Part shown: positions 6,961 through 52,900 of the stretch, piece after piece | How positions within the stretch are numbered: position 1 is the stretch's first letter | Layout: the number at the start of each line of letters is the position of its first letter | Assembly (NCBI GenBank): GCA_947591575.1 | Contig: CANQDI010000001.1 | Coordinates: 1-61,850, forward strand | Reading direction: 5' to 3' | Source: an uncultured Bacilli bacterium | GTDB lineage: Bacteria > Bacillota_I > Bacilli_A > RF39 > UBA660 | Length of the DNA stretch: 61,850 nt | Notes under the pieces: model-generated | What the model was told of the DNA's origin: nothing | Databases searched by the model: none | Seen by the model: the letters and a program-made list of their open reading frames with translations, nothing else | Program-made: the position numbers and the translations under genes

Positions 6961-7137
6961 AATAACACCTCCTTTTTCAGATATTGAGTATTGAGGTCCA
7001 TAAAAAAGTTCTTGGTAATGCCACCAAGAACTTTTCTAACTATTATGTTAAAAGTTTTTCAAAGTCCTCGGTAGGATTTACTGACTTACCTACTGTCTAT
7101 GGCACTCAAATCAATTGTTATTATAGATATTTTTTCT
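6961..7137 (-). promoter_or_regulatory. L10 (rplJL) leader with terminator-type hairpin
   Basis: The 177-nt untranslated gap between rplA and rplJ contains, on the minus strand, GTAGGTAAGTCAGTAAATCCTACCGAGG. This is followed by the hairpin AAGTTCTTGGTGGCATTACCAAGAACTTTTTT (plus 7002-7035). That arrangement is expected for the Firmicute L10 autoregulatory leader. Confidence 0.6.
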
Positions 7138-12938: not shown

Positions 12939-14414
12939 TTAATAAAGCGTTAAAGGATTTAACACAGTACCACCACGATATGGTGGACCACCTTTCCATA
13001 ATCCAAAGTGGAGATGCACCCCTGTCACATACCCTGTTGATCCCATACCACCGATGACTTGTCCTAATGAAACGACTTGTCCGACTTGCACATAAAATGT
13101 ATCTAAGTGACCATAGATTGTATAATATCCATTATTGTGATTGATTACAATATAGTTTCCATCTGGCCAACGATAAGTTGCTTCAACTACAACACCGTTA
13201 TTCGCTGCATAAATTGGTGAGCCTCGACCGGTTCCAGCAATATCAATTGCATCATGATAACTTCCCCAACGATATCCTAAACCAGAGGTAATCGTATAAG
13301 GTGTTTTGGTTGGCCATGCCCAATATCCAGAATCAGCATAAGAATTGGCACGTCCTCCACGAACAACAATTTCATTAACGGCAGGTGTAATAACTTCCGT
13401 AGATGATTGATCCGTTGCAACGGAAGTAATTTCACCATTTACCTTTTTGACCTTTCTGGTCGTTCTTGCGAGCCCATCTTGTCCTGATTGAATCACATTT
13501 GTTGTTCCAATTAACAAATTATTATCATAACGAACTTCTCTGGTATATTTAATTGCTTGTAATTCAACAACGTGATCTACCTCAACTAAATCAAATTGTG
13601 GCTGTAAAATACCAAGTGTTACTTCTTGTCCTGGGAAAAGAAGACTATTTTCATCTTGAAATTGAGGATTTGCAACTAAAAATTCTTCGTTAGAGATTTT
13701 ATTATTATAAGCAACATCACTAATGGTATCTCCTTCTTGAACGGTATATTTTTTTTGTTCTTCAAGAGTTCCAAACATCAAAAATTTTGATAAATCTTCA
13801 ACATTTTGATAAATCGTTTCATCTGCTGAAATATTTTCTTTTCGAATAATAATTTTATTTTCAATAAAGACATCTTCGATTTGACTTCCAACATCTTTAA
13901 TTTCCTCTTGTGTTCCATTGACATATTTTTCATATTGATCTTTATCAATAAAAGATGCAATCATATTGTCAACAGCTTGATCAAATATTTTTTGATCAAG
14001 AACATAAATGACTTTGTCTTCAGTTGTCACTTTTTCTCCTGCTTCATTTGTTTCTTCAATTCCTTTGATAGTGATACTATAACCACTGATTGTAAAAGGA
14101 GTAATATTTTTTATTTTGTCATAAATTTGTTGCGTTGTATTAATTCTCTCATCATAAGTAATTTCTTGTTCAATATCTAAATCCGTTGGAGCATAAACTT
14201 TATCAATATTATATTTTTCTTTAAGAGCTTGTTGTTCACTATCTATATAGTTTTCTAAATCCTGTTTTGATTCAATAAGACCTAATGATTTTCCTTCTAG
14301 ATATACTCGATATACTTGAAGAGGTTCTGCTACTTTTGATTCATATCCTAAAAGAACACAGCCAAAAGAAAGGATACTTGCAAAAAGAGCTTGTATAATT
14401 ATTTTAGAATTCAT
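12939..14414 (-). CDS. M23-family peptidoglycan metalloendopeptidase with LysM and G5 domains
   Basis: It has an N-terminal signal/anchor, a LysM-like segment (YTVQEGDTISDVAYNNKISNEEFLVANP) and a G5-like segment (NVIQSGQDGLARTTRKVKKVNGEI). The M23 motifs HDAIDIAG and GVHLHFGLW are also present. Confidence 0.85.
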   Translation of the reverse strand: MNSKIIIQALFASILSFGCVLLGYESKVAEPLQVYRVYLEGKSLGLIESKQDLENYIDSEQQALKEKYNIDKVYAPTDLDIEQEITYDERINTTQQIYDKIKNITPFTISGYSITIKGIEETNEAGEKVTTEDKVIYVLDQKIFDQAVDNMIASFIDKDQYEKYVNGTQEEIKDVGSQIEDVFIENKIIIRKENISADETIYQNVEDLSKFLMFGTLEEQKKYTVQEGDTISDVAYNNKISNEEFLVANPQFQDENSLLFPGQEVTLGILQPQFDLVEVDHVVELQAIKYTREVRYDNNLLIGTTNVIQSGQDGLARTTRKVKKVNGEITSVATDQSSTEVITPAVNEIVVRGGRANSYADSGYWAWPTKTPYTITSGLGYRWGSYHDAIDIAGTGRGSPIYAANNGVVVEATYRWPDGNYIVINHNNGYYTIYGHLDTFYVQVGQVVSLGQVIGGMGSTGYVTGVHLHFGLWKGGPPYRGGTVLNPLTLY

Positions 14415-22234: not shown

Positions 22235-23113
22235 CTACTTATTTATTTGCATAACTTCTAGTATCCGATTCAAATCATTTTTATTTGTAAATGAAATCAC
22301 TAACTTATTATTTTTTACTTTTACTTTTGTTCCTAATTTTTCTTCAAGGAAATTCTCTATATAAGTATATTCTTCATCTATAGAAACTTTTCTTTTCATT
22401 TCCCTTCTTCGTGGATATTTTTCTTGGGTTGCTAGTTCCTCTAAAGCTCGAACACTTAACCCTTCTGCTACAATTTTTTCTGCAAGATATTTTATTTGTT
22501 CTTTATCTACTAATTTACTTAGAACTCGAGCATGTCCCATTGAAATTTGATTGGTAGTAATAAAATCTTTTACTTCTTCTGGAAGTGTCAACAAACCAAG
22601 CATATTTGTTACATAACTTCTGCTTTTTCCAAGACGATGAGCAAGCATATCTTGGGTAAGCGAAAGAGTTTCTTGCAATTTTTTATAAGCTGATGCTTCT
22701 TCTAATGGAGATAAATTTTCTCTTTGCAAATTCTCTAGAATAGCTATTTCCATCATTGCTTCATCTGAAAAATCTTTTACAATGGCTGGAATTACATCAA
22801 GTCCTGCTAACTGTGATGCTTTTACACGACGTTCTCCGGCAACAATTTCATATCCTTTAATACTTTTCTTTGCTATAATTGGTTGAAAAACACCATGTTC
22901 TTGAATGGATGTTGCCAATTCTTTTAATTTTTCTTCATCAAAATTTTTTCGTGGTTGATATGGGTTTGGTCTTAGTTCACGAATAGGTAAATTTACCACT
23001 TCTTCTTTTGGAGTAGATTGAACAATTTTTTCTTCTAATTGTTGATAGTCAATTGGTTCATTATAAAATAATTCTTCTAATCCCTTTCCAAGTGCTCTTC
23101 GTTTAGTTTCCAT
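22235..23113 (-). CDS. parB: chromosome partitioning protein ParB/Spo0J
   Basis: The N-terminus reads RRALGKGLEELF and the CTP-binding motif GERR is present. The HTH region reads LGKSRSYVTNMLGLL and ISMGHARVL, which is the ParB type (R and G at the positions that differ in Noc). It lies downstream of parA. The ATG at 23113 overlaps the parA stop. Confidence 0.93.
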   Translation of the reverse strand: METKRRALGKGLEELFYNEPIDYQQLEEKIVQSTPKEEVVNLPIRELRPNPYQPRKNFDEEKLKELATSIQEHGVFQPIIAKKSIKGYEIVAGERRVKASQLAGLDVIPAIVKDFSDEAMMEIAILENLQRENLSPLEEASAYKKLQETLSLTQDMLAHRLGKSRSYVTNMLGLLTLPEEVKDFITTNQISMGHARVLSKLVDKEQIKYLAEKIVAEGLSVRALEELATQEKYPRRREMKRKVSIDEEYTYIENFLEEKLGTKVKVKNNKLVISFTNKNDLNRILEVMQINK

Positions 23114-23888
23114 TACGATCAATCACTTCCTTTGCTAAATTAATATAGGCTTCACTACCCCTACTTTTAGGATCATATGCAATGATTGGTTCTCCATGAG
23201 AAGGTGCTTCTGTGAGGCGAATTAAACGTGGAATAATAGTATTATAAACTTTTTCTTTGAAAAATTTACGAATATCTTCTACCACTTCAAATCCTAAATT
23301 GGTTCTTGAATCAAGCATTGTTAAAAGAACTCCTTCTATATCTAAATTAGGATTTAATTGTTTTTGAGCAAGACGAATTGTGTTTAATAATTGCATAATT
23401 CCTTCCAAAGCAAAAAACTCACATTGAACAGGAATAATAACGGAATTACTAGCTGTTAAGGCATTGGTTGTTATAAGTCCTAATGAAGGAGGACAATCAA
23501 TAATGATAAAATCAAAAAAATCTTGAATCTCATTTAAATGATTTTTTAATTGAGCTCCCTTTGCAAAACCTGGTTCAATTTGACTTTTTTCTAATAATTC
23601 AATATCAAGTCCTGCTAAATTAATCGTCGCAGGAATCACATAAAGTTGTTTATATTTTGTTTGAATCATTGCATCTTTAATCTGACATTTTCCAATTAAT
23701 ACATCATAAATACTAAGAGAAATATCACCTTTATTGATACCAATTCCTGTGGTTGTATTTCCCTGCGGATCTAAATCAATTAAAAGCACTTTTTTCCCCA
23801 ATATTGCTAGACTGGCGGAAAGATTGATACTTGTTGTTGTTTTTCCGACTCCACCTTTTTGATTAACTAATGCGATAACCTTTCCCAT
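23103..23888 (-). CDS. soj: chromosome partitioning ATPase ParA/Soj
   Basis: It has the deviant Walker A motif NQKGGVGKTTT and is 261 aa long. Confidence 0.95.
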   Translation of the reverse strand: MGKVIALVNQKGGVGKTTTSINLSASLAILGKKVLLIDLDPQGNTTTGIGINKGDISLSIYDVLIGKCQIKDAMIQTKYKQLYVIPATINLAGLDIELLEKSQIEPGFAKGAQLKNHLNEIQDFFDFIIIDCPPSLGLITTNALTASNSVIIPVQCEFFALEGIMQLLNTIRLAQKQLNPNLDIEGVLLTMLDSRTNLGFEVVEDIRKFFKEKVYNTIIPRLIRLTEAPSHGEPIIAYDPKSRGSEAYINLAKEVIDRNGN

Positions 23889-23979: not shown

Positions 23980-25284
23980 CTACTCTTCTATTTGATCTTT
24001 CATAAATCTAATAACAATTTGATAGTCTTTATCAAAATCCATTTCTTCTTTTTCAATATGAATACCAGCTTGTTCTAATTTGTCAATAGTATTACGAACT
24101 TCTTCAATTGCATCTTTCATTGTATAATGATTTCCATTTTCTTCTATAGGAGAAGATGGCTTTTCCTCCTGTAGTTGAGAAGATATTCCTTTAGACTGAA
24201 TGTCTGGTATTTGAAAAGGATTCATAGCTTGATTCATTGTGTTTATATTGTTTGTTGGAACAAGATCAGGCACTTTAAAAAGATCTTCATTTATGGAAGA
24301 ATGAATTGGGGAATTTTCTTCCATACTTGGACGAATAAATTTAAATGTTTCTTGAGGTGGTTCTTGAGTTTCACTTCCCACTTGTAATAGACTGTCTAAA
24401 TCAGCAGCAGGCATTGTATCTTGATGAATATCCTGTGCATTTTGTCTTAAGGCATCTATATCTGGCGTATTGATTGCAGAACTTTCCCCAATATCTCCTA
24501 TATCTTCTTCCTCTTCTAAACCATAATTAATAAATTTAGGAGGAGTACTATAATCAATAATGGATGTATCATCTGTTTGTGGACTAGTTGATCCTTGGAA
24601 AGGCATAATAGGAGGGTTTTGATCTGGAATCATATTGATAGAAGAAGCATTCTGTAAGTCATGCGATGATTCTGCTTTTTCTTTTGGCGGATTGATTTCA
24701 TTTTCAAGTTCTCTTACTGTCATTTTTTTATCAATGACTTTCTTTAACATTTTTTTTTGTTCTTCAGGATTTTCAATACTTAATAAACTTCTTGCATGTC
24801 TTTCTGAAATTTGTTCTTTTAAAACAGCATCTTGTACTGCTTCTGAAAGCGAAAGAAGTCGTAATTTATTAGCGACGGCTCCCTGACTTTTTCCCATTGT
24901 TTTTGCAAGTTCTTCTTGTGTCATCTGATCAAGTTCTAAAATTTTTTGATATGTTCTTGCCTCTTCAATTGGATTTAAGTTCTTACGTTGTAAATTTTCA
25001 AGTAAAGCAACTTTAGAACTTTCTTTATCATCTAAGTTTCTAATAATTGCTGGAATTTTCGTAAGACCTGCTAAAGCACTTGCTTTATATCTTCTTTCTC
25101 CTGCAATAATTTCATATTTATTTCCAATATTTCTTACAATGATAGGTTGAATTACTCCATGTTCTTTAATGGAAATCGCTAGTTCTTTTAAAGCTTTTTC
25201 ATCAAAAATTTCTCTAGGTTGAAAACGATTTGGAATAATATCATCTAAATGTAATAGTACTACTTCATTTTCTCCTTGCATCAT
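23980..25284 (-). CDS. noc: Noc-like ParB-family protein (no N-terminal amphipathic helix; ~187-aa low-complexity insertion)
   Basis: It has the ParB N-domain motifs IIPNRFQPR and GERR. The HTH region reads GKSQGAVANKLRLL and ISERHARSL, which matches B. subtilis Noc (GKGQSTIANKLRLL and ITERHARAL) rather than Spo0J. The C-terminal 45 aa resemble the Noc C-terminus. It sits in the rsmG-noc-soj-spo0J order. Confidence 0.8.
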   Translation of the reverse strand: MMQGENEVVLLHLDDIIPNRFQPREIFDEKALKELAISIKEHGVIQPIIVRNIGNKYEIIAGERRYKASALAGLTKIPAIIRNLDDKESSKVALLENLQRKNLNPIEEARTYQKILELDQMTQEELAKTMGKSQGAVANKLRLLSLSEAVQDAVLKEQISERHARSLLSIENPEEQKKMLKKVIDKKMTVRELENEINPPKEKAESSHDLQNASSINMIPDQNPPIMPFQGSTSPQTDDTSIIDYSTPPKFINYGLEEEEDIGDIGESSAINTPDIDALRQNAQDIHQDTMPAADLDSLLQVGSETQEPPQETFKFIRPSMEENSPIHSSINEDLFKVPDLVPTNNINTMNQAMNPFQIPDIQSKGISSQLQEEKPSSPIEENGNHYTMKDAIEEVRNTIDKLEQAGIHIEKEEMDFDKDYQIVIRFMKDQIEE

Positions 25285-31395: not shown

Positions 31396-31570
31396 TTTTC
31401 CACTTTATTCACATCCTGTTGATATTCTTTTTTCACATTGTGCAATAAAAATTGTGGAAACTGTGGATAAGTTTCTTTTTCTTTGATTTTATAAGTCATT
31501 TAATTGTGAATAAAATTGTGAATTTCTTGTGCAAAAAAATTTTTGAAATTTTTCTGTTTATTTTTCCACA
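31396..31570. other. oriC part 1: DnaA-box cluster upstream of dnaA
   Basis: There is one perfect DnaA box, TGTGGATAA, at 31462-31470 (reverse orientation). Near-consensus boxes are TTATTCACA at 31405-31413, TGTGAATAA at 31505-31513 and TTTTCCACA at 31562-31570. Weaker boxes lie at 31396-31404, 31453-31461 and 31517-31525. A TATAAT lies at 31583-31588. Confidence 0.8.
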
Positions 31571-31621
31571 AATTTAGTCTATTATAATGGTAAATTCTTT
31601 ATTTTTAGGGGAGATGGTCGG

Positions 31622-32989
31622 ATGAATGTAGACATTTTATTTCAAAATGCACTAAAAATCATTAAAGAAGAACTATCTTCCCTTTCTTTTAATACTTGGT
31701 TTGAAGAATTAAAATTAGTTTCTTTAAAAGATGGTATTGCTACATTTCAAGTTCCAATGGCAATACATAAAAAACAATTAAACAATAACTATTATGATAT
31801 TATAAAAAATGCTCTTAACCAAATAACTGGAACAAATTTTGATTTAGAGTTTTTGCTAGAAGATGAAATTCAATCAAAAGAAGAAGCAAAGCAAAAAGAA
31901 AATAAACAAGAAGAAATAGGTGTTCCTCAGGAATTTAAAAATCGATCCAATTTAAATAGTAATTATACCTTTGATAATTTTGTTGTAGGAAATAGTAATA
32001 AATTTGCACAAGCTGCGGCATTATCTGTGGCAGAAAATCCTGGAAAAATGTATAATCCTTTATTTTTATATGGAAACAGTGGTCTTGGAAAAACACACTT
32101 GATGCATGCCATTGGAAATTATATTATTCAAAATAGTAATCGTAAAGTACTTTATGTTACAAGTGATCAATTTATTAACGATTTTATTAACATCAATAAA
32201 AAAGATGATCAAGGAACAAATTTTAATTACGTTGACTTTTTTAAAAATAAATATCGAAACATTGATGTTTTAATCATTGATGATATTCAATTTTTAGGCG
32301 GAGCAACCCAAACACAACAAGAATTTTTCCATACTTTCAATACTCTATATGATGATAGTAAACAAATTATTATCTCTTCTGATCGTTCACCAGATGATTT
32401 AAAATTATTAGAGGAAAGACTGAGAACTCGCTTTTGTTGGGGATTAACAGTAAATATTTTTCCACCTGATTTTTCTTTAAGAACTGAAATCTTGCGAAAA
32501 AAAATTTTGGCAGGACATTTTGAACAAGATATTCCAGAAGATGTAATTGAATATATTGCATCAAATATAGGAAGTGATGTACGACAATTAGAAGGTTCAA
32601 TTACAAGATTAGTTGCTTATTCCACAATTATGGGAGGTGCCTCCATTACTTTAGATCTTGCCATTGATGCTTTAAAAGATTTTATTAGTAAAGGAATTAG
32701 TGAAAAAAATGATATTGCAAGAATTCAAAAACTTGTTGCAGAATTTTTTCAAATTAATGTAGAGGATATTCGCTCCAAAAAAAGAAGTGCTAACATTGCT
32801 TTTCCACGACAAGTAGCCATGTATCTTTGTAGAACGATGACTTCTGAATCTTTCCCTAAAATTGGAACAGAATTTGGTGGAAAAGATCATTCAACTGTTA
32901 TGCATTCCGTAGAAAAGATTGAAAAAGAAATAAAAGTTAACCCAGATTTAGCAAATATTATTGAGAAACTCAAAAAGGATATTGAATAG
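31622..32989 (+). CDS. dnaA: chromosomal replication initiator protein DnaA
   Basis: The 455-aa ORF has the AAA+ Walker A motif GNSGLGKTHLMHA and the C-terminal DNA-binding signature (FGGKDHSTVMHSVEKI). Confidence 0.98.
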   Translation: MNVDILFQNALKIIKEELSSLSFNTWFEELKLVSLKDGIATFQVPMAIHKKQLNNNYYDIIKNALNQITGTNFDLEFLLEDEIQSKEEAKQKENKQEEIGVPQEFKNRSNLNSNYTFDNFVVGNSNKFAQAAALSVAENPGKMYNPLFLYGNSGLGKTHLMHAIGNYIIQNSNRKVLYVTSDQFINDFININKKDDQGTNFNYVDFFKNKYRNIDVLIIDDIQFLGGATQTQQEFFHTFNTLYDDSKQIIISSDRSPDDLKLLEERLRTRFCWGLTVNIFPPDFSLRTEILRKKILAGHFEQDIPEDVIEYIASNIGSDVRQLEGSITRLVAYSTIMGGASITLDLAIDALKDFISKGISEKNDIARIQKLVAEFFQINVEDIRSKKRSANIAFPRQVAMYLCRTMTSESFPKIGTEFGGKDHSTVMHSVEKIEKEIKVNPDLANIIEKLKKDIE

Positions 32990-32992
32990 GGG

Positions 32993-33120
32993 TGTGGAAA
33001 AGAAAAAGATAAACACAGGATTTTCCACAATCAAAAAAACGTGGTAGAATAGAAAACTATAGGAAATTTAGCGTTATTCACAATTTCCACAGTAATAATA
33101 AAAATAGTATTTAAAGAAAG
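32993..33120. other. oriC part 2: DnaA boxes plus AT-rich candidate unwinding region between dnaA and dnaN
   Basis: Boxes are TGTGGAAAA at 32993-33001, TTTTCCACA at 33021-33029, TTATTCACA at 33074-33082 and ATTTCCACA at 33083-33091. They are followed directly by G-TAA-TAA-TAA-AAA-TAG-TAT and further A/T sequence. Confidence 0.72.
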
Positions 33121-34426: not shown

Positions 34427-34888
34427 ATGCAAAAAGAAGCTTATGAAATTAATGAAGGAACTTATGCTATCTGTTCTAATGATAGACTAGGTTCAACTAT
34501 TTTGGAGGAAGAAGGGACCTATGAAATTTTAGAAAATCCTTCTCATGTCATTGATTATGGTTGTAATTATTTTGGAAGTACCTATAAAGGGAGAAGAGAG
34601 GGGGCTATTCATATTTTAAATAGTCGTTATAAAGTTCCAATTGTTATTGAAGATAGTCAAAATATGATTTTCTTTCCAACTGGAAATAAAGATGATTATG
34701 AATGTAGTTGGATTGCTCTTAACAAAATTAAAAATTATGCACCTTCTGGTAGAAAAACGAAAGTAGAGTTTATCAATGGTGAAATATTAACATTTGATAT
34801 TTCTTTTCGTTCTTTTCAAAACCAGGTTTTAAGAGCGAGTAGGTTGGATTCTATTTTAATGAATCGAAAGAATAAAAAAACAGTATAA
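34427..34888 (+). CDS. ComK-family protein (competence transcription factor family)
   Basis: The 153-aa ORF aligns by eye with B. subtilis ComK in four blocks. YEINEGTYAI pairs with YEVNGATIAV, and VIDYGCNYFGSTYKGRREGA with IVDRSCRFFGSSYAGRKAGT. YKVPIVIEDSQNMIFFPTGN...CSWIAL pairs with HKPPIMVDPSNQIFLFPTLSS...CGWISH, and ISFRSFQNQVLRASRL with ISYNSFENQVYRTAWL. It has the RBS GAAGGGGG. Confidence 0.8.
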   Translation: MQKEAYEINEGTYAICSNDRLGSTILEEEGTYEILENPSHVIDYGCNYFGSTYKGRREGAIHILNSRYKVPIVIEDSQNMIFFPTGNKDDYECSWIALNKIKNYAPSGRKTKVEFINGEILTFDISFRSFQNQVLRASRLDSILMNRKNKKTV

Positions 34889-38043: not shown

Positions 38044-40479
38044 ATGGATAGATTAGAAAAAAATAGTATTGTAAAAGAAGTAAAAGACTCTTTCCTAGAA
38101 TATTCAATGAGCGTTATTGTAGCACGCGCATTACCAGATTTACGGGATGGTTTAAAGCCAGTTCATCGTCGTATTTTATATTCTATGTATGAGTCAGGAT
38201 ATACTCCAGATAAACCTCATAAAAAAAGTGCAAAGACAGTTGGAGAAGTCATGGGAAATTACCATCCACATGGAGATTCTAGTATTTATGAAGCAATGGT
38301 TCGTATGGCACAAGATTTTTCATATCGCTATATGTTAATTGATGGTCATGGAAACTTTGGAAATATTGAAGGATATGGTGCTGCTGCAATGCGATATACA
38401 GAAGCACGTTTATCCAAGATTTCGTTAGAATTACTTAAAAATATTAATAAGAATACTGTTAATTTTATTCCAAATTTTGATGAAACAACGAAAGAACCTG
38501 AAGTATTACCATCTAGATTTCCTAATATTTTAGTAAATGGTACAACTGGAATTGCAGTAGGTATGGCAACGAATATTCCACCACATAATTTAGGAGAAGT
38601 TATTGATGGGTGTGTTGCTTATATCGATAATCCTGATATCGATGTAGATGGATTGATGAAATACATTAAGGGACCTGATTTTCCAACTGGAGCAACTATT
38701 TTAGGAAATAGTGGTATTCGAAAAGCCTATGAAACAGGGCGAGGAACGATTACAATTCGAAGCAAAGCTCAAATTGAAGAAAAAAATGGAAGACAATATA
38801 TTATTGTTGATGAAGTACCTTATGGTATTAATACTTTAGAACTTAAAAATAAAGTGGCAGAGCTTGTACATAATAAAGTTATAGATGGTATCGCAGATTA
38901 TCATTCTGATTTAAAAGATGGTATTAAAATTACGATTACATTGAAAAAAGATGCTAATGCACAGGTTGTGTTAAATCAACTTTATAAACATACTTCTTTT
39001 CAGACAACTTATGGTATTATTTTCTTAATGTTAGATCAAGGTGTCCCAAAAACCCTTGGATTAAAAGATATTATTGAAAAATATATTGAATTTCAAAAAG
39101 AAATCATTATTCGTAGAACTAATTTTGATCTTGAAAATGCAGAAAAAAGAGTTCATATTTTAGAAGGCTTGAAAATTGCACTCGATCATATTGATGCAGT
39201 TATTAAGCTAATTCGTGGATCTAAAACAGATGACGAAGCAAGAAATGGTCTTATGAATCAGTTTGGACTAACTGAGATTCAATCAAATGCTATTCTAGAA
39301 ATGAGACTACGTCGATTAACTGGTTTAGAACGCGAAAAAATCGAAAATGAATTAAATGATCTTTTAAAATTGATTGCTGAACTTAAAGATATACTAAGTA
39401 GTGATGCTAAAATTTTAAATGTTATTCGTACAGAATTATTAGAAATTAAAGGTAAGTATGCTGACGAGCGTAGGACAAATATTGATATGACAGCAATTGA
39501 ATATATTGAAGATGAGTCTCTTATTCCAGTAGAAGATATTATTATTACCTTAACAAATAAGGGATATATTAAACGTTTAAGAGCAGATACTTATCGTGCT
39601 CAAAATCGTGGTGGTGTTGGAATTAAAGGAATGACAACGAACGAAGAAGACTTCGTAGAACATATTGTATCCATGAAAACTCATGATTATCTCTTATTTT
39701 TCTCAAATAAAGGTAAAGTTTATAGATTGAAAGGGTATGAAATTCCAGAATTTACGCGTCAATCAAAAGGTTTACCTATAGTTAACTTATTATCACTGGA
39801 AAAAGATGAATATATCAATTCAATAGTAGAGTTAAATTCAAAGGAAGATATTTATAAATATTTAATGTTTGCAACGAAAAATGGACTTGTCAAACGAACT
39901 CCAATTGGTGAATTTGATAATATTCGTAAGAGTGGTAAAATTGCAATTATTATTAAAGAACAAGATGAATTAATAGTAGTAAGAAAAACAACAGGTGAAG
40001 ATGAAATCATTATCGGTGGCAGTAATGGACGGATGGTTCGTTTCTTGGAACAAGAAATCCGATCTATGGGAAGAGGAACTTCTGGCGTAAAAGGGATGGA
40101 TTTAGAAAATGCAAAAGTCGTTGGTGCAGAAATTATTCATAGCGATGAAGAAGTTTTGATTGTTACTGAAAACGGATATGGAAAGAAAACAAACATTGGA
40201 GAATATCGCCTAACACATCGTGGAAGTAAAGGCGTCAAAGCTTTAAATTTAACCGAAAAAAATGGTAATATGGTTAGTCTAAAACGTGTTGAATCTATTG
40301 AAAATAATGATTTAATGATTGTAACTGATAATGGTGTGATTATGAGAATGCCATTAACACAAATTTCTACATTGAAAAGGGCTACACAAGGAGTAAGATT
40401 AATTCATCTTAAAGATAATCAAAAAGTAGCAACGGTTGCTATTGTTGAAAAAGAAATAATTGAAAGTCAACAAGAATAA
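38044..40479 (+). CDS. gyrA: DNA gyrase subunit A
   Basis: The 811-aa ORF has a QRDR-like [28 protein letters not shown], the active-site motif [10 protein letters not shown] and C-terminal beta-pinwheel repeats. Confidence 0.98.
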
Positions 40480-40509
40480 AGTAAATTATCTTTCTTTTCT
40501 TGTTTGAAA

Positions 40510-40525
40510 TATTTCCCGGGAAATA
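40510..40525. promoter_or_regulatory. Noc-binding-site (NBS) type palindrome, copy 1
   Basis: This is a perfect 16-bp palindrome, TATTTCCCGGGAAATA. It contains the B. subtilis NBS consensus ATTTCCCGGGAAAT. Confidence 0.8.
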
Positions 40526-40533
40526 AAATAACA

Positions 40534-40549
40534 AGTTTCACGTGGAACA
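40534..40549. promoter_or_regulatory. parS site, copy 1
   Basis: The site reads AGTTTCACGTGGAACA. Its reverse complement, TGTTCCACGTGAAACT, matches the B. subtilis parS consensus TGTTNCACGTGAAACA at 15 of 16 positions. Confidence 0.85.
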
Positions 40550-40558
40550 TCTCAAAAA

Positions 40559-40574
40559 TATTTCCCGGGAAATA
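40559..40574. promoter_or_regulatory. NBS-type palindrome, copy 2
   Basis: This is a perfect TATTTCCCGGGAAATA. Confidence 0.8.
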
Positions 40575-40582
40575 AAATGATA

Positions 40583-40598
40583 AGTTTCACGTGGAACA
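40583..40598. promoter_or_regulatory. parS site, copy 2
   Basis: The site reads AGTTTCACGTGGAACA, identical to copy 1. Confidence 0.85.
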
Positions 40599-40609
40599 TC
40601 TCACTAAAA

Positions 40610-40625
40610 TATTTCCCGGGAAATA
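40610..40625. promoter_or_regulatory. NBS-type palindrome, copy 3
   Basis: This is a perfect TATTTCCCGGGAAATA. Confidence 0.8.
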
Positions 40626-40635
40626 AAATGGACGC

Positions 40636-40664
40636 TTTACAAAAAAAATATTTTGTAATAGAAT
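40636..40664 (+). promoter_or_regulatory. candidate sigma-A promoter of the SRP RNA gene
   Basis: TTTACA (40636-40641), a 17-nt spacer and TAGAAT (40659-40664) place the transcription start at about G40671. Confidence 0.55.
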
Positions 40665-40670
40665 GAATTT

Positions 40671-40742
40671 GTGCAATAAGTAGTGTTGGAATCAGGTCAG
40701 GACTGGAAAGTAGCAGCCTTAACAATTTCTGCTTATGTGCAC
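40671..40742 (+). ncRNA. ffs: small (4.5S-type) signal recognition particle RNA
   Basis: CAGGTCAGGACTGGAAAGTAGCAGCC matches the universally conserved SRP domain IV (E. coli 4.5S has CAGGUCAGGUCCGGAAGGAAGCAGCC, with a GGAA tetraloop). The 5' GTGCAATAAGTAG pairs with the 3' CTGCTTATGTGCAC, and a TTTTTT run follows. It lies near dnaX, as in Bacillus. Confidence 0.85.
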
Positions 40743-40767
40743 TTTTTTAGTTTAATAGGTGATAAAA

Positions 40768-41211
40768 ATGAATTTAAAATATATGGAATTGGCTATACAG
40801 GAAGCAAAAAAAGCATATAAATCAGGAGAAATTCCTGTTGGTGCCGTTATTGTGAAAGAAGATAAAATTATTGCAAAAGCACATAATCAAAAAGAAAAAA
40901 ATAAGAATGTGATTTGTCATGCAGAAATGATAGCTATAAAAAAAGCTTCAAAAAAAATAAATAATTGGAGATTATCTAATTGTGATATATATATTACGTT
41001 GTTTCCATGTCCTATGTGCGCTAGTGCAATTCAACAATCTAGAATAAAAAATGTATATTATGCATTACAAAATTCAGATTTAAAAACAGTAGAAATTGTG
41101 CAAAAAATTTTTTTAGGATCTGCAATAAATAAAAGTGTTCATTACGAACAAATTGATTGTGACAAAGAATCATTGAAATTATTACAAAATTTTTTTCAAA
41201 AAAAAAGATAA
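40768..41211 (+). CDS. tadA: tRNA adenosine(34) deaminase TadA
   Basis: It has the CDA-fold zinc motifs HAEMIAI and PCPMCASAI. I prefer the ATG at 40768, 5 nt after AGGTGA, over the ORF-track GTG at 40759. Confidence 0.93.
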   Translation: MNLKYMELAIQEAKKAYKSGEIPVGAVIVKEDKIIAKAHNQKEKNKNVICHAEMIAIKKASKKINNWRLSNCDIYITLFPCPMCASAIQQSRIKNVYYALQNSDLKTVEIVQKIFLGSAINKSVHYEQIDCDKESLKLLQNFFQKKR

Positions 41212-41271
41212 AAATACGGTTTCTACGCTTTTTTTATAAAGCTTTGTGATATAATAGTATTGCTAGGGGTG

Positions 41272-42993
41272 ATGGAATTGTATCAAGCTTTATATCGAAA
41301 ATATAGACCTCAAAAATTTGAAGATATTTATGGACAAAACGTAATTGTTAAGACATTGAAAAATAGCATTTTACACAAAAAAATTGGACATGCTTATATG
41401 TTTTCTGGACCTAGAGGTACAGGAAAAACAACGATAGCAAAAATTTTTGCTAGAGCAGTTAATTGCTTGAATTCTATAGATGGAGAAGCTTGTGAAACTT
41501 GTTCCAATTGTTTAAATAGTTTTTCAAAAGAATGTGTTGATATTATTGAAATTGATGCTGCTTCTAATAATGGAGTTGATGAAATACGTGAATTAAAAAA
41601 TAAAGTAAATATTGTTCCTTCCAATTTAAAATATAAAATATATATTATTGATGAAGTTCATATGTTATCAATTGGTGCCTTTAATGCATTATTAAAAACA
41701 CTGGAAGAGCCTCCAGAACATGTTATCTTTATTCTTGCTACCACTGATCCACAAAAAGTTCCTATTACAATTATTTCACGATGTCAATGTTATCAATTTA
41801 AGCGAATTGATGATATAAGTATGTACAATCGCTTAAAAAAAATAGTTGAACTTGAAAATTTTCAAGTTGATGATGATGTTTTGAATGCAATTGTATCAGT
41901 TACAGACGGTGGCCTAAGAGATGCCATTGGATTATTAGATCAAATTACTTCTTATAAAAATGGGCATATCACATTAAATGATTTTCATGAAATATATGGA
42001 AATTTAATGGAAGAAGAGCTAGATAATTTTATAGATTTAATTTTTCAAAACAATGTAAAAGGGGTTATCGATTGCATAGAAAAATATAATTGTGAAGGAA
42101 AAAATATCATTCAGATTATGAAACAAGTTACTTTGACATTAAAGAATAGATTAATTGATTTTTATCTTTATTCAAAAAAAATGACTTGTGATGAAGAAAT
42201 AATTATTCAGTTGATTAATCAATTAAATGAACGAATGTTCGATATTAAAAAAACAGATGATCCAAAAACATATCTAGAAATTTTCTTATTAAATTTCATG
42301 CATAAAAATTTAAAAGATGAAATAAAGGAAGAAAAAGATTTACATTTAACTTTTGATTTAAAAGAAAAAAATGGTTCTATAAATTATAAAGAATTATCTG
42401 ACGAGAATATGGTAGAAGAGAAAATATCAAAAGTTCAAAAAGAAAAAGAAAACCAGACTATTCAAAAAGAAAATAAAGTGATAGATCAAACAAAAGAAAT
42501 GCTTGAAAAAATGTGTATTGAAGCACACAATGTTTTAGTAAATGCATCTAAAAGTGAATTAAATTTGGTAAAAGATGGTTTTGATAAATTATCTGATTTT
42601 ACTTTTGACAGCAATATAGGATATATTGTATGTTATTTAATGGATGGTAATTTAAGAGCAGCTAATCAAGAAAAATTTATTTTAAGTTATGAATATGAAT
42701 CTATGATAGAAAAGATTTTACCAAGTTTAGATAAAATGATGTCTAATTTTAATAAAATTACAAATTTAAAAAAGAAAATAGTTTGCATTACAGATCATCA
42801 ATGGGATAAATTAAAAAAAGACTTTATATATTGTAAGCAAAATGGAATATCCTTTGAACAATTGCCAGAAAAAGCAATGTCCGAAAATAATGGCATAAGC
42901 AATAAAGAAATAGTTGAATCTAAAGCATCATCTATATCTACAAAAGAAAATGAGACATTATCCCTTTTTGGAGATATTGTTGAAATAAATTAA
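41272..42993 (+). CDS. dnaX: DNA polymerase III subunit gamma/tau
   Basis: It starts MELYQALYRKYRPQKFEDIYGQ, has the Walker A motif GPRGTGKTT and the zinc module CETCSNC. The exact start codon is uncertain (the ORF-track TTG is at 41260). Confidence 0.93.
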   Translation: MELYQALYRKYRPQKFEDIYGQNVIVKTLKNSILHKKIGHAYMFSGPRGTGKTTIAKIFARAVNCLNSIDGEACETCSNCLNSFSKECVDIIEIDAASNNGVDEIRELKNKVNIVPSNLKYKIYIIDEVHMLSIGAFNALLKTLEEPPEHVIFILATTDPQKVPITIISRCQCYQFKRIDDISMYNRLKKIVELENFQVDDDVLNAIVSVTDGGLRDAIGLLDQITSYKNGHITLNDFHEIYGNLMEEELDNFIDLIFQNNVKGVIDCIEKYNCEGKNIIQIMKQVTLTLKNRLIDFYLYSKKMTCDEEIIIQLINQLNERMFDIKKTDDPKTYLEIFLLNFMHKNLKDEIKEEKDLHLTFDLKEKNGSINYKELSDENMVEEKISKVQKEKENQTIQKENKVIDQTKEMLEKMCIEAHNVLVNASKSELNLVKDGFDKLSDFTFDSNIGYIVCYLMDGNLRAANQEKFILSYEYESMIEKILPSLDKMMSNFNKITNLKKKIVCITDHQWDKLKKDFIYCKQNGISFEQLPEKAMSENNGISNKEIVESKASSISTKENETLSLFGDIVEIN

Positions 42994-45781: not shown

Positions 45782-46477
45782 ATGGAAGTATTACGAGTGA
45801 TAGATTTTCATGATAAAAAAATAAAAATATATGAAAATACTGATTGGTTTTCAACTACTACAGATAGTGTGTTATTGAGTGACTTTGTTTCATTGCAATT
45901 GAAAGATCAAAAAATTTTAGATTTAGGAAGTGGAGTAGGGACCATCCCTCTTCTTTTATCATGTAAAACGAAAGCCCAAATTTATGGAATTGAAATTCAA
46001 GAAGACGTACATGATTTAGCAAGAAAAAATATTCAATTAAATCACTTAGAAGAACAGATTAAATTGTTTCACGGAGATATGAACAATATTTCTATCTTAT
46101 CTTTAGAAGGAAAATGTGATGTTGTTATTTCAAATCCACCATATTTTCCATATGATGAGGACAAAATAACTAATCTAGATATTCATAAAAAGTATGCAAG
46201 ACATGAAGTTACTATTACATTAACGCAACTTCTTCAAGTGGCCAAAAGATTTTTAAAAGATCATGGTAGACTCGTCCTTATTTATCGAACAGAAAGATTA
46301 TTAGATGTTTTAGAGGAATTAAAAAATCAAGGATTTGAACCAAAAAGACTTCAATTCATTCATCATTCTAGAAATAGCATTTCAAAACTTTTCTTGATAG
46401 AAGCAAAAAAATATGGTAAAAGAGAATTAAAAATATTAAAACCATTATATATTTTAGAACGGAAAGAAAGTGAATAG
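45782..46477 (+). CDS. tRNA (adenine-N6)-methyltransferase-like SAM methyltransferase (YabB/TrmN6-like)
   Basis: It has the SAM motif ILDLGSGVGTIPL and the N6-adenine motif SNPPYF. Confidence 0.8.
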   Translation: MEVLRVIDFHDKKIKIYENTDWFSTTTDSVLLSDFVSLQLKDQKILDLGSGVGTIPLLLSCKTKAQIYGIEIQEDVHDLARKNIQLNHLEEQIKLFHGDMNNISILSLEGKCDVVISNPPYFPYDEDKITNLDIHKKYARHEVTITLTQLLQVAKRFLKDHGRLVLIYRTERLLDVLEELKNQGFEPKRLQFIHHSRNSISKLFLIEAKKYGKRELKILKPLYILERKESE

Positions 46478-47312
46478 GATGCAAAAAAGTTATGAATCAA
46501 AAAATGCTCTCTATATTATTCCAACACCTATTGGAAACTTGGAAGATATTACACTTCGAGCTTTATCGACTCTAAAAATGGTTGACTTACTACTTTGCGA
46601 AGATACAAGAACAACAGGTATTTTATTATCCAATTATAAAATCAAAAAAAAATTGATTAGTTGTCACGAATATAATGAAGAAAAAATGAAAAGTGTAATC
46701 TTATCTTATTTAGAAGAAGGAAAAAATATTGGACTTGTAACAGATCAAGGAACACCTATTATAAGTGATCCTGGATATCGAGTTGTTTCCTATTTAATTA
46801 AATGTGGGAAAACGGTTATTTCTTTACCAGGAGCTACTGCTTTTGTTCCTGCACTTACATCAAGTGGCCTACCTCCTCAACCTTTTTTATTTTATGGATT
46901 TTTAAATGCTAAAAGTAGTAAAATGAAAAAAGAATTAGAACAATTGAAACAATATCCATTTTCTATTATTTTTTATGAGTCTCCTCATCGCATACAAGAA
47001 ATGTTAGAAAACATGCTAGAAATCTTTGGAGATCGTAAGATAACTCTTGCAAGAGAAATTTCTAAAATCCATGAATCATATTACTATGGCCAAATCTCTT
47101 CTGTTCTTGAGGAGATTCCTTCAATAAAAGGTGAAATAGTTATTGTTGTAGAGGGTAATCGTGATAGTATCTCTTATCAAAATTTATCTTTAAAAGAACA
47201 TGTCGATTTATATGTTCAAGATAACATGTCTTTGAATGATGCTATGAAAAAAGTAGCGAAAGAACGTGGAATGGCTAAATCAATTGTTTATAATGAATAT
47301 CATCAAAAATAA
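46470..47312 (+). CDS. rsmI: 16S rRNA (cytidine1402-2'-O)-methyltransferase RsmI
   Basis: The tetrapyrrole-methylase-fold N-terminus reads LYIIPTPIGNLEDITLRAL and CEDTR. The true start may be the ATG at 46479. Confidence 0.92.
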   Translation: MNRMQKSYESKNALYIIPTPIGNLEDITLRALSTLKMVDLLLCEDTRTTGILLSNYKIKKKLISCHEYNEEKMKSVILSYLEEGKNIGLVTDQGTPIISDPGYRVVSYLIKCGKTVISLPGATAFVPALTSSGLPPQPFLFYGFLNAKSSKMKKELEQLKQYPFSIIFYESPHRIQEMLENMLEIFGDRKITLAREISKIHESYYYGQISSVLEEIPSIKGEIVIVVEGNRDSISYQNLSLKEHVDLYVQDNMSLNDAMKKVAKERGMAKSIVYNEYHQK

Positions 47313-47313
47313 G

Positions 47314-47337
47314 AAATTATTTCCCGGGAAATAATTT
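47314..47337. promoter_or_regulatory. isolated NBS-type palindrome (24-bp perfect palindrome)
   Basis: AAATTATTTCCCGGGAAATAATTT contains the same 16-mer TATTTCCCGGGAAATA (47318-47333) as the 40.5-kb array. It lies 2 nt after the rsmI stop. Confidence 0.75.
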
Positions 47338-47355: not shown

Positions 47356-47922
47356 ATGAAAATGGTTGTAGCATTAGGAAATCCAGGTGAAGAATACGAA
47401 AATACACGACATAATACAGGATTTTTCTTTTTAGAATCTTATTTAAGAGAAAAAGGTTTTACTGTTTGGAAAAAAAAGAACAGAGCTAGATATATTGAAA
47501 AATATGTAAATGGCGAAAAAGTTATTTTTTTAGAGCCTCTTTCTTTTATGAATTTATCTGGAGAAGTTGTTTCTGTTTTTAAAAAATATTATAGTATTCC
47601 AACAGAAGATATTTTAGTAATTTGTGATGATTTAGACTTAAATTTGGGAAAAATAAAATTAAAAGCGAAGGGAAGTTGTGGTGGTCATAATGGCCTTAGA
47701 AATATTGAACTTCATCTAAAAACGCAAAACTACAAACGACTTAAAATAGGAATTTCAAATGACAAAGATAAAAGTACAATTGATTATGTTTTAGGAAAAT
47801 TTACGAAAGAAGAACAAACTAAGTTAAATGACTTGGTTCCAAAAATTTCTCAGATTATTGATCGCTTTTTTGTGACAGATTTTTCTCTTTTAATGAGTCA
47901 ATATAGTGAAAAGAATAGGTGA
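47356..47922 (+). CDS. pth: peptidyl-tRNA hydrolase
   Basis: The 188-aa ORF has the motifs GLGNPG-like ALGNPGEEYENTRHNTGF and GGHNGLRNI. Confidence 0.95.
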   Translation: MKMVVALGNPGEEYENTRHNTGFFFLESYLREKGFTVWKKKNRARYIEKYVNGEKVIFLEPLSFMNLSGEVVSVFKKYYSIPTEDILVICDDLDLNLGKIKLKAKGSCGGHNGLRNIELHLKTQNYKRLKIGISNDKDKSTIDYVLGKFTKEEQTKLNDLVPKISQIIDRFFVTDFSLLMSQYSEKNR

Positions 47923-52670: not shown

Positions 52671-52676
52671 TTTCCT

Positions 52677-52900
52677 TAGAAGTGATGAGGAAGAGCTTCT
52701 TTAAAAAAGATGAATGAAGAGAACTTCTGGTGGGTGAAAAGAAGGGTCATCATTAAAGAAGTATGGCTTCTGAACTATTATGTCGATAAGTAGATATAAT
52801 CGTATTCTGGCGTTAACGGAATAAGTGTGTAATAGAGTTTATTATAAAATAAGGTGGTACCGCCCGTTCTAGGGTCCTTATAATATAATAAACTTTTTTT
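52677..52900 (+). promoter_or_regulatory. T-box leader (Met specifier) controlling metG
   Basis: A Stem-I AG-bulge and distal-loop pair are present (AGAGAAC...GGTGGGTGAAA). A candidate specifier AUG lies at 52763-52765 and is followed by a purine. The T-box sequence AAGGTGGTACCGCC lies at 52851-52864. A long AT-rich helix (GTTTATTATA at 52837-52846 pairing with TATAATAAAC at 52884-52893) is followed by TTTTTTT. Confidence 0.75.

Follow-up and report, generated by a model that had tools for sequence, protein, structure and literature searches.

We find that the spacer downstream of gyrA in an uncultured Bacilli bacterium holds a short tandem repeat in which predicted loading sites for two ParB-family proteins are interleaved, and that such paired sites recur at the gyrA/tadA locus in more than 100 species. 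With a probability of roughly 0.6, we read this repeat as a composite centromere that would load two CTP-dependent clamps, canonical ParB and a Noc-type paralogue, side by side. What the sequence shows is where the sites lie, how well they are conserved and which specificity residues the two proteins carry; from this we infer that the proteins bind and occupy the array together, and what the paralogue does, binding being predicted from residues and motifs tested experimentally in other species. Throughout, "the window" denotes the whole stretch of DNA that was analysed (61,850 nucleotides), and coordinates refer to it. A first-pass annotation of this DNA had proposed an interleaved loading array for ParB and a Noc paralogue, and the specificity residues, the identity of the paralogue and the conservation reported below, three independent lines, support that proposal.

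The array occupies positions 40507-40630 (no strand assigned to it or its sites), where Tandem Repeats Finder reports a period of 49 bp, 2.5 copies, 94% matches and a score of 216, each unit carrying one NBS and one parS. Three NBS, the predicted loading sites of the Noc-type paralogue, lie at 40510-40525 (NBS-1), 40559-40574 (NBS-2) and 40610-40625 (NBS-3) and are exact matches to the 16-mer TATTTCCCGGGAAATA, with the palindrome ATTTCCCGGGAAAT and the same core as the in-vitro substrate of Jalal et al. 2021. Between them stand two parS, the predicted ParB loading sites, at 40534-40549 (parS-1) and 40583-40598 (parS-2); both read AGTTTCACGTGGAACA, with one mismatch to TGTTCCACGTGAAACA on the minus strand, and match the parS palindrome TGTTNCACGTGAAACA at 15 of 16 positions. 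Centre-to-centre distances run 24, 25, 24 and 27 bp, the five sites span 116 bp in total, and 8-11 bp separate neighbouring 16-mers. Most of what the first-pass annotation had read here stands, namely the positions of the three exact NBS and of the two parS, the 15 of 16 matches on the reverse strand, the five sites in 116 bp and the tandem repeat itself (its figures now revised from about 2.3 copies of about 50 bp), whereas the claimed alternation of 24- and 27-bp spacings does not.

A fourth exact NBS, overlooked in that annotation, stands alone at 47318-47333 (no strand assigned) between an rsmI-like methyltransferase gene, whose stop is at 47312, and pth, which starts at 47356, so that the window holds four exact copies, three of the four clustered in the array and one apart. 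No further NBS was found in the 62 kb, and the 61.8 kb searched held no parS-like site with up to three mismatches besides the two of the array. Across 100 dinucleotide shuffles of the window, matches with up to three mismatches averaged 0.53 for NBS, against the four exact copies observed, and 0.40 for parS. The identical five-site array is present in an independent ENA assembly (L001; 99.9% identity over 12.7 kb). Short-read contigs stop in or beside arrays at a number of loci (L001, L006, L021, L056, L109, L122, L175, L176, L181), and because the repeats seem to break assemblies, array copy numbers may be underestimates; that of the window could exceed 2.5 if short-read assembly collapsed the repeat.

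The array lies between two conserved neighbours, gyrA upstream (38044-40479, plus strand; Pfam) and a tadA-like deaminase gene downstream (40759-41211, plus strand; Pfam). A small SRP RNA gene (40661-40755, plus strand; RF00169, 57.8 bits) precedes the latter, and its predicted promoter (TTTACA-17-TAGAAT, 40636-40664, plus strand; 10 of 12 matches in a promoter scan) begins 10 bp past NBS-3, in agreement with an array that had been described as ending 10 bp before the SRP -35 element. The replication origin region was delimited at 31405-33082 (no strand assigned), where clusters of DnaA boxes (31405-31570 and 32993-33082) flank dnaA and where the GC skew changes sign at about 31-32 kb; on the skew and the two clusters we place oriC 7.4-9.1 kb from the array, compatible with the distance of about 9 kb estimated before. 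Other features of the window can be recorded alongside. A ComK-domain gene lies between dnaN and recF (34427-34888) and keeps that place in 24 loci of the motif scan described below and in every DnaN-selected locus. A T-box leader (52676-52882, plus strand, 102 bits) and a ribosomal protein L10 leader (6993-7120, minus strand, 59.7 bits) are ordinary and bear no relation to the array.

Both cognate-type proteins are encoded in the window, as the first-pass annotation had it. A ParB of the Spo0J type (22235-23122, minus strand, with a likely ATG start at 23113) carries ParB_N, HTH_ParB and ParB_C domains, a ParA/Soj ATPase adjoins it (23103-23888, minus strand; AAA_31/CbiA/ParA domains), and a Noc-type ParB paralogue of 434 amino acids follows (23980-25284, minus strand; ParB_N and HTH_ParB by Pfam). 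The resulting order rsmG-paralogue-parA-parB equals the rsmG(gidB)-noc-parA-parB order of B. subtilis. Preference for parS or NBS is set by four residues (Caulobacter positions 173, 179, 184 and 201), a change of which switched Caulobacter ParB from parS to NBS; the ParB type has R..G, the Noc type has Q, K, K and R, and a single permissive lysine suffices (Jalal et al. 2020, PMC7383237). At these positions the window's ParB (GKSRSYVTNMLGLLTL...ISMGHAR) has R, M, T and G and is of the parS type, while the paralogue (GKSQGAVANKLRLLSL...ISERHAR) has Q, K, S and R, with a serine at Noc's second permissive lysine, and is of the NBS type. The four residues of the paralogue are invariant in 13 homologues from the clade, and the combination that marks NBS preference (Q173, R201 and a permissive lysine at 179 or 184) is present. 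The parS assignment, for its part, has its expected context in origin-proximal sites, a ParB of the R173/G201 type and an adjacent ParA gene. The CTP motifs GERRxKAS (GERRVKAS in ParB) and ENLQR are intact in both proteins, and ParB carries the N-terminal motif RALGKGLEELF.

Compared with solved structures, the paralogue scores highest against Noc (7NG0/7NFU, 212 bits; 7OL9, 187 bits) and lower against Spo0J (166-175 bits). On the Noc model TIGR04285 it reaches 289.4 bits, under the cutoff of 315 (the window's ParB reaches 231 bits), and the C-terminal 50 positions of the model stay unmatched. B. subtilis Noc needs an N-terminal amphipathic helix (amino acids 1-10) for membrane binding and function (PMC4331003). 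The paralogue, with the N-terminus MMQGENEVV..., begins only 8 residues ahead of its ParB_N domain and so lacks such a helix, and a longer reading frame is impossible because only 76 bp separate the rsmG stop from its start; the helix is absent from the paralogue and from all 13 homologues compared. It carries about 235 extra residues. From the N-terminus, the protein consists of a CTP-binding domain, a DNA-binding domain of the NBS type, a linker of about 185 amino acids that is predicted to be disordered, and a small C-terminal alpha/beta domain. An AlphaFold2 (AF2) model, built on a 13-sequence alignment with a mean pLDDT of 59.8 and too weak for a fold search, models residues 203-385 as disordered, followed by a small domain of one helix and two strands. 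Homologues of 427-500 amino acids align with the paralogue end to end, so that the long form is kept in the clade, and short motifs in its linker (IDYSTPPKFIDYG, FKFF.P and NNPFA.NPIF, within residues 200-434) are invariant. FKFF may loosely resemble FSRFF, from the membrane helix of Noc in B. subtilis. Judged by these features, the paralogue is not a canonical Noc. The label "Noc-like" given to it in the first-pass annotation agrees with its NBS-type residues, the noc synteny and its similarity to Noc structures but not with the TIGR04285 cutoff, and it requires a qualifier because the amphipathic helix that B. subtilis Noc needs is missing.

To find relatives of the array, we searched a collection in which each of 185,579 species is represented by one genome (596 Gb) for NBS cores with a parS core at a distance of 0-30 nt, a scan that by design selects for adjacency of the two sites. 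At least 120 loci were found, where by our own estimate about 0.1 such pairs would be expected by chance in 596 Gb. Among the matches listed, about 114 of 120 adjoin gyrA and/or tadA when searched by tblastn with the window's proteins (gyrA at 92, tadA at 89), and the identity of their GyrA to that of the window is 48-86%. The relatives are labelled as uncultured gut Bacilli, Ca. Onthousia, Ca. Scybalousia and Clostridium sp. CAG:710/1000/417, all of which we take to belong to the GTDB order RF39. Although the records of some relatives read "Tenericutes" or "Mycoplasma", a LysM/G5/peptidase M23 gene in the window (12939-14414) suggests a peptidoglycan wall.

Arrays in these relatives range well beyond that of the window in size, for example 12 NBS and 12 parS with a period of about 79 bp (L075), 7 NBS and 9 parS at 75 bp (L074), 7 and 7 at 82 bp (L013), 6 and 6 at 76 bp (L110), 6 and 6 at 64 bp (L016), and 7 NBS with 4 parS at 62 bp (L004). 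Repeat periods across species are 49, 62, 64, 75, 79, 82, 115 and 136 bp, the 49-bp unit of the window being the shortest among the strictly alternating tandem arrays examined, and some relatives match or exceed the window's site density in other site orders. Spacers diverge between species while both palindromes are kept, with decayed copies of both site types also present. The outer T/A positions of the two 16-mers, which were left free in the search pattern, are 93-98% conserved over 341 NBS and 620 parS sites in the clade (98% for those flanking NBS), and the clade consensus for parS is A-TGTTTCACGTGAAACA-T. Because the spacers differ and these unfixed outer positions are nonetheless conserved, selection appears to act on the sites and not on the repeat. 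Conservation in related genomes, which had been proposed as a check on the array, is borne out by NBS-parS pairs at the gyrA/tadA locus in more than 100 species, and the array is a clade-wide feature and not one unique to the genome of the window.

Lone NBS resembling that at 47318 also occur 6-7 kb beyond the array in relatives, their exact position varying: some lie upstream of pth (L050, L096, L104), others inside a homologue of the window gene at 45782-46477 (L019, L032, L057, L060). As a separate observation, an NBS core occurs inside the dnaX homologue of some relatives, about 1.5 kb past tadA (L003 at 3794, L008 at 3557, L010 at 4704, L090 at 3687); the window's dnaX (41260-42993) contains none.

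As a sample of relatives chosen independently of the motifs, we took 80 metagenome loci solely by similarity of the GyrA C-terminal domain (60-78% identity). In 167 kb downstream of the gyrA stop there are 85 NBS and 178 parS, and in 303 kb upstream of it there is not one site of either type. With two mismatches allowed, and counting the 64 of the 80 loci that have at least 600 bp of flank, parS-type sites are present in 50, NBS-type sites in 40, both types in 32, and a pair within 45 bp in 21; parS stands alone in about a quarter of the loci, and NBS alone in a few. The strict alternation described at first is found in the window (NPNPN, where N is NBS and P is parS) and is one of several orders in these loci, others being PPNPNPNPNP, PPPPP and NN. 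Interleaving is common, especially in closer relatives, but not universal in the clade.

In three origin regions of about 20 kb that were selected through the similarity of their DnaN, every NBS and parS falls within the gyrA-tadA spacer, where both types are interleaved; one region alternates strictly with an even spacing of 57-58 bp, and two of the three have the long paralogue beside rsmG. On a possible lack of the paralogue in parS-only lineages, the DnaN-based look-ups extend to close relatives only, and the nearest two contigs break off within gyrA or gyrB, short of the array. One locus (L202; GCA_947627225.1, CANQVB010000005.1, 1-2400) carries a mixed NBS/parS array after gyrA and has, beside rsmG, no ParB-family gene, that place being taken by an LGT gene and two small ORFs; its noc-parAB may lie elsewhere in the genome, and the contig ends 1.7 kb further on. 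In four loci (L162, L165, L155, L152), the first 250 bp past gyrA pair NBS with a hybrid palindrome, TATTTCACGTGAAATA, in which the outer discriminating base is NBS-like and the inner one parS-like, and which hints at a drift of ParB specificity in the clade.

These comparisons bear on whether the repeat concerns ParB-family proteins in the first place. Palindromes in the 3' region of gyrA that can fold, in an array ending 10 bp before the SRP -35 hexamer, could instead be hairpins or terminators of gyrA, promoter or operator elements of the SRP RNA gene, or a MITE-like mobile repeat; we consider any of these very improbable, given that each motif is base for base a protein site that has been defined by experiment. 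A terminator scan found no terminator-like site within the array, whose palindromes have neither loops nor T-tails. The SRP RNA adjoins tadA in relatives (detected in 14 of 18 examined), with the array 50-110 bp away from the SRP gene, astride it (L047, L065) or past tadA (L013, L007); because this distance varies, the 10-bp gap in the window is probably incidental. We rejected the terminator and promoter readings on these two grounds, the missing terminator and the varying promoter distance. The mobile-repeat reading was likewise rejected, the 49-bp unit occurring at a single locus in the window and being absent from the relatives' 303 kb upstream of gyrA. The sites of the relatives are confined to the gyrA-tadA-dnaX neighbourhood.

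Neighbouring parS-parS sites are rarely less than 40 bp apart and NBS-parS neighbours are mostly 21-40 bp apart, with NBS-parS distances concentrating near 26, 36, 47-49, 58 and 68 bp. To reduce shared ancestry, we grouped 346 distinct spacers into 176 similarity clusters, across which the periodogram of NBS-parS centre distances peaks at 10.3-10.7 bp with p about 0.003 against a smoothed null, a value for which several periods were tried and which overstates independence because the loci, and still the 176 groups, are phylogenetically related. The preferred remainder is 5.4, that is, half-integer helical turns. Spacings at 31-32 bp form a group off this phase of about 10.5 bp, and those of the window (24-27 bp) are near, not on, the 26-bp mode. 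Taken together, NBS-parS spacing is suggestive of a periodicity of 10.5 bp.

Spacing and recurrence also speak to another origin of the interleaving, in which an ordinary dispersed NBS that lay next to parS was copied along when the centromere underwent tandem duplication, leaving the interleaving without a function of its own. Lone NBS do exist (47318 in the window, and inside dnaX or near pth in relatives), units are alike within an array (94% in the window) as recent duplication predicts, and decayed copies of both site types as well as parS-only clusters in some lineages fit such a history. We nevertheless regard it as quite improbable. The pair recurs in more than 100 species with unrelated spacers and many unit lengths, NBS sit mostly 21-40 bp from parS where parS-parS distances under 40 bp are rare, the 85 NBS in 167 kb downstream of the gyrA stop contrast with none in 303 kb upstream, and the spacing is apparently phased.

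A different possibility accepts that both proteins bind and holds that they compete. A Noc-type dimer 24-27 bp from parS would then act as a roadblock that limits how ParB clamps escape or slide or how SMC is loaded, or vice versa, and the partition complex would be confined or tuned and not joint. The site and protein evidence serves this alternative as well as it serves a composite centromere; the 8-11 bp between 16-mers puts a bound neighbour in the path of a sliding clamp, and a comparable proposal exists for S. aureus, where RicO at the origin-proximal ricS may limit ParB sliding and SMC loading. The apparent half-turn phasing, however, persists at 47, 58 and 68 bp, beyond the reach of steric blocking of binding, and roadblocking does not predict phasing because it would work at any spacing. 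Moreover, the last site of many arrays can be of either type, and NBS are the only sites in a few lineages. On balance we think competition or insulation unlikely.

In the composite centromere that we favour, parS palindromes would load canonical ParB as a CTP-dependent sliding clamp, and NBS palindromes 24-27 bp away would load the Noc-type paralogue encoded beside parA-parB. Because parS and NBS adjoin, both clamps would be fed onto the same few hundred bp near oriC, where they may make one mixed nucleoprotein complex. To this complex ParB would bring its usual partition functions (ParA stimulation and probably SMC loading), and the paralogue, its membrane helix lost and a linker with invariant motifs gained, may bring a second recruiting or tethering activity at the origin region. 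The NBS-parS pair would be the unit that is amplified and trimmed by unequal recombination, which would explain the 2.5 units of the window against 1 to 12 in relatives. We further entertain, tentatively and as a rather doubtful extension, that ParB and the paralogue form a single cooperative, helically phased centromere machine, with alternating sites on opposite faces of the DNA and a linker that recruits a partner at the origin (a division, replication or tethering factor).

Much of this has counterparts in known systems. B. subtilis and S. aureus share with the window an identical NBS, a parS matching at 15 of 16 positions, paralogous CTP clamps, the gene order and the origin-proximal location; there, however, parS (about 10) and NBS (41-70 or more) are single and dispersed, with NBS spread across the half to two-thirds of the chromosome nearest the origin, whereas here they are interleaved 24-27 bp apart, and the paralogue differs from their Noc in having a long disordered linker and no membrane helix. 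Plasmid centromere arrays are built of short head-to-tail units that vary in copy number between relatives, each unit with an inverted repeat of 16 bp that serves a ParB-family protein, the sopC of the F plasmid consisting of twelve 43-bp repeats with one SopB site each; such arrays are not known to have more than one site type, for one protein, whereas the present one is chromosomal and alternates sites for two paralogues. Caulobacter, Corynebacterium, Streptomyces and Myxococcus have several parS within a few kb near oriC that serve one partition complex, but these clusters are not known to contain sites other than parS or to be tandem repeats, and they belong to phyla from which Noc is absent. 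In S. aureus, RicO at ricS is a second site-specific DNA-binding protein at the origin beside ParB-parS and may modulate ParB/SMC, yet it is not of the ParB family, is bound to the membrane through a C-terminal helix, and has its site at least 5 kb from parS compared with 24 bp here (bioRxiv 10.64898/2026.03.06.710092). Full-text literature searches turned up no account of parS and NBS that lie next to each other or interleave, in line with the first-pass statement that an alternating array of the two has no precedent. Known parts thus appear in new versions, as a conserved and perhaps phased array for two paralogues and as a Noc relative that has a linker but no helix.

Among CTP-switch clamps, ParB and Noc serve as the two models and have so far been studied as separate systems with dispersed sites. 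Here a conserved locus in more than 100 species places their predicted loading sites at distances of 24-68 bp and apparently in phase, which means that evolution repeatedly keeps both together. It raises the question whether two distinct sliding clamps travel along the same track, assist each other or stand in each other's way. This question is testable without culture because synthetic genes and a 124-bp DNA would suffice to rebuild so small a system in vitro. For a large, uncultured, reduced-genome group of gut Bacilli, the array would identify the main centromere, and a Noc-lineage protein without a membrane helix speaks against taking NBS-type specificity as a sign of nucleoid occlusion. 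Should the cooperative, phased machine prove true, a Noc-lineage protein could serve the centromere and not membrane-bound nucleoid occlusion, and the clade may retain, or may have evolved anew, the condition under which NBS arose through duplication of parS.
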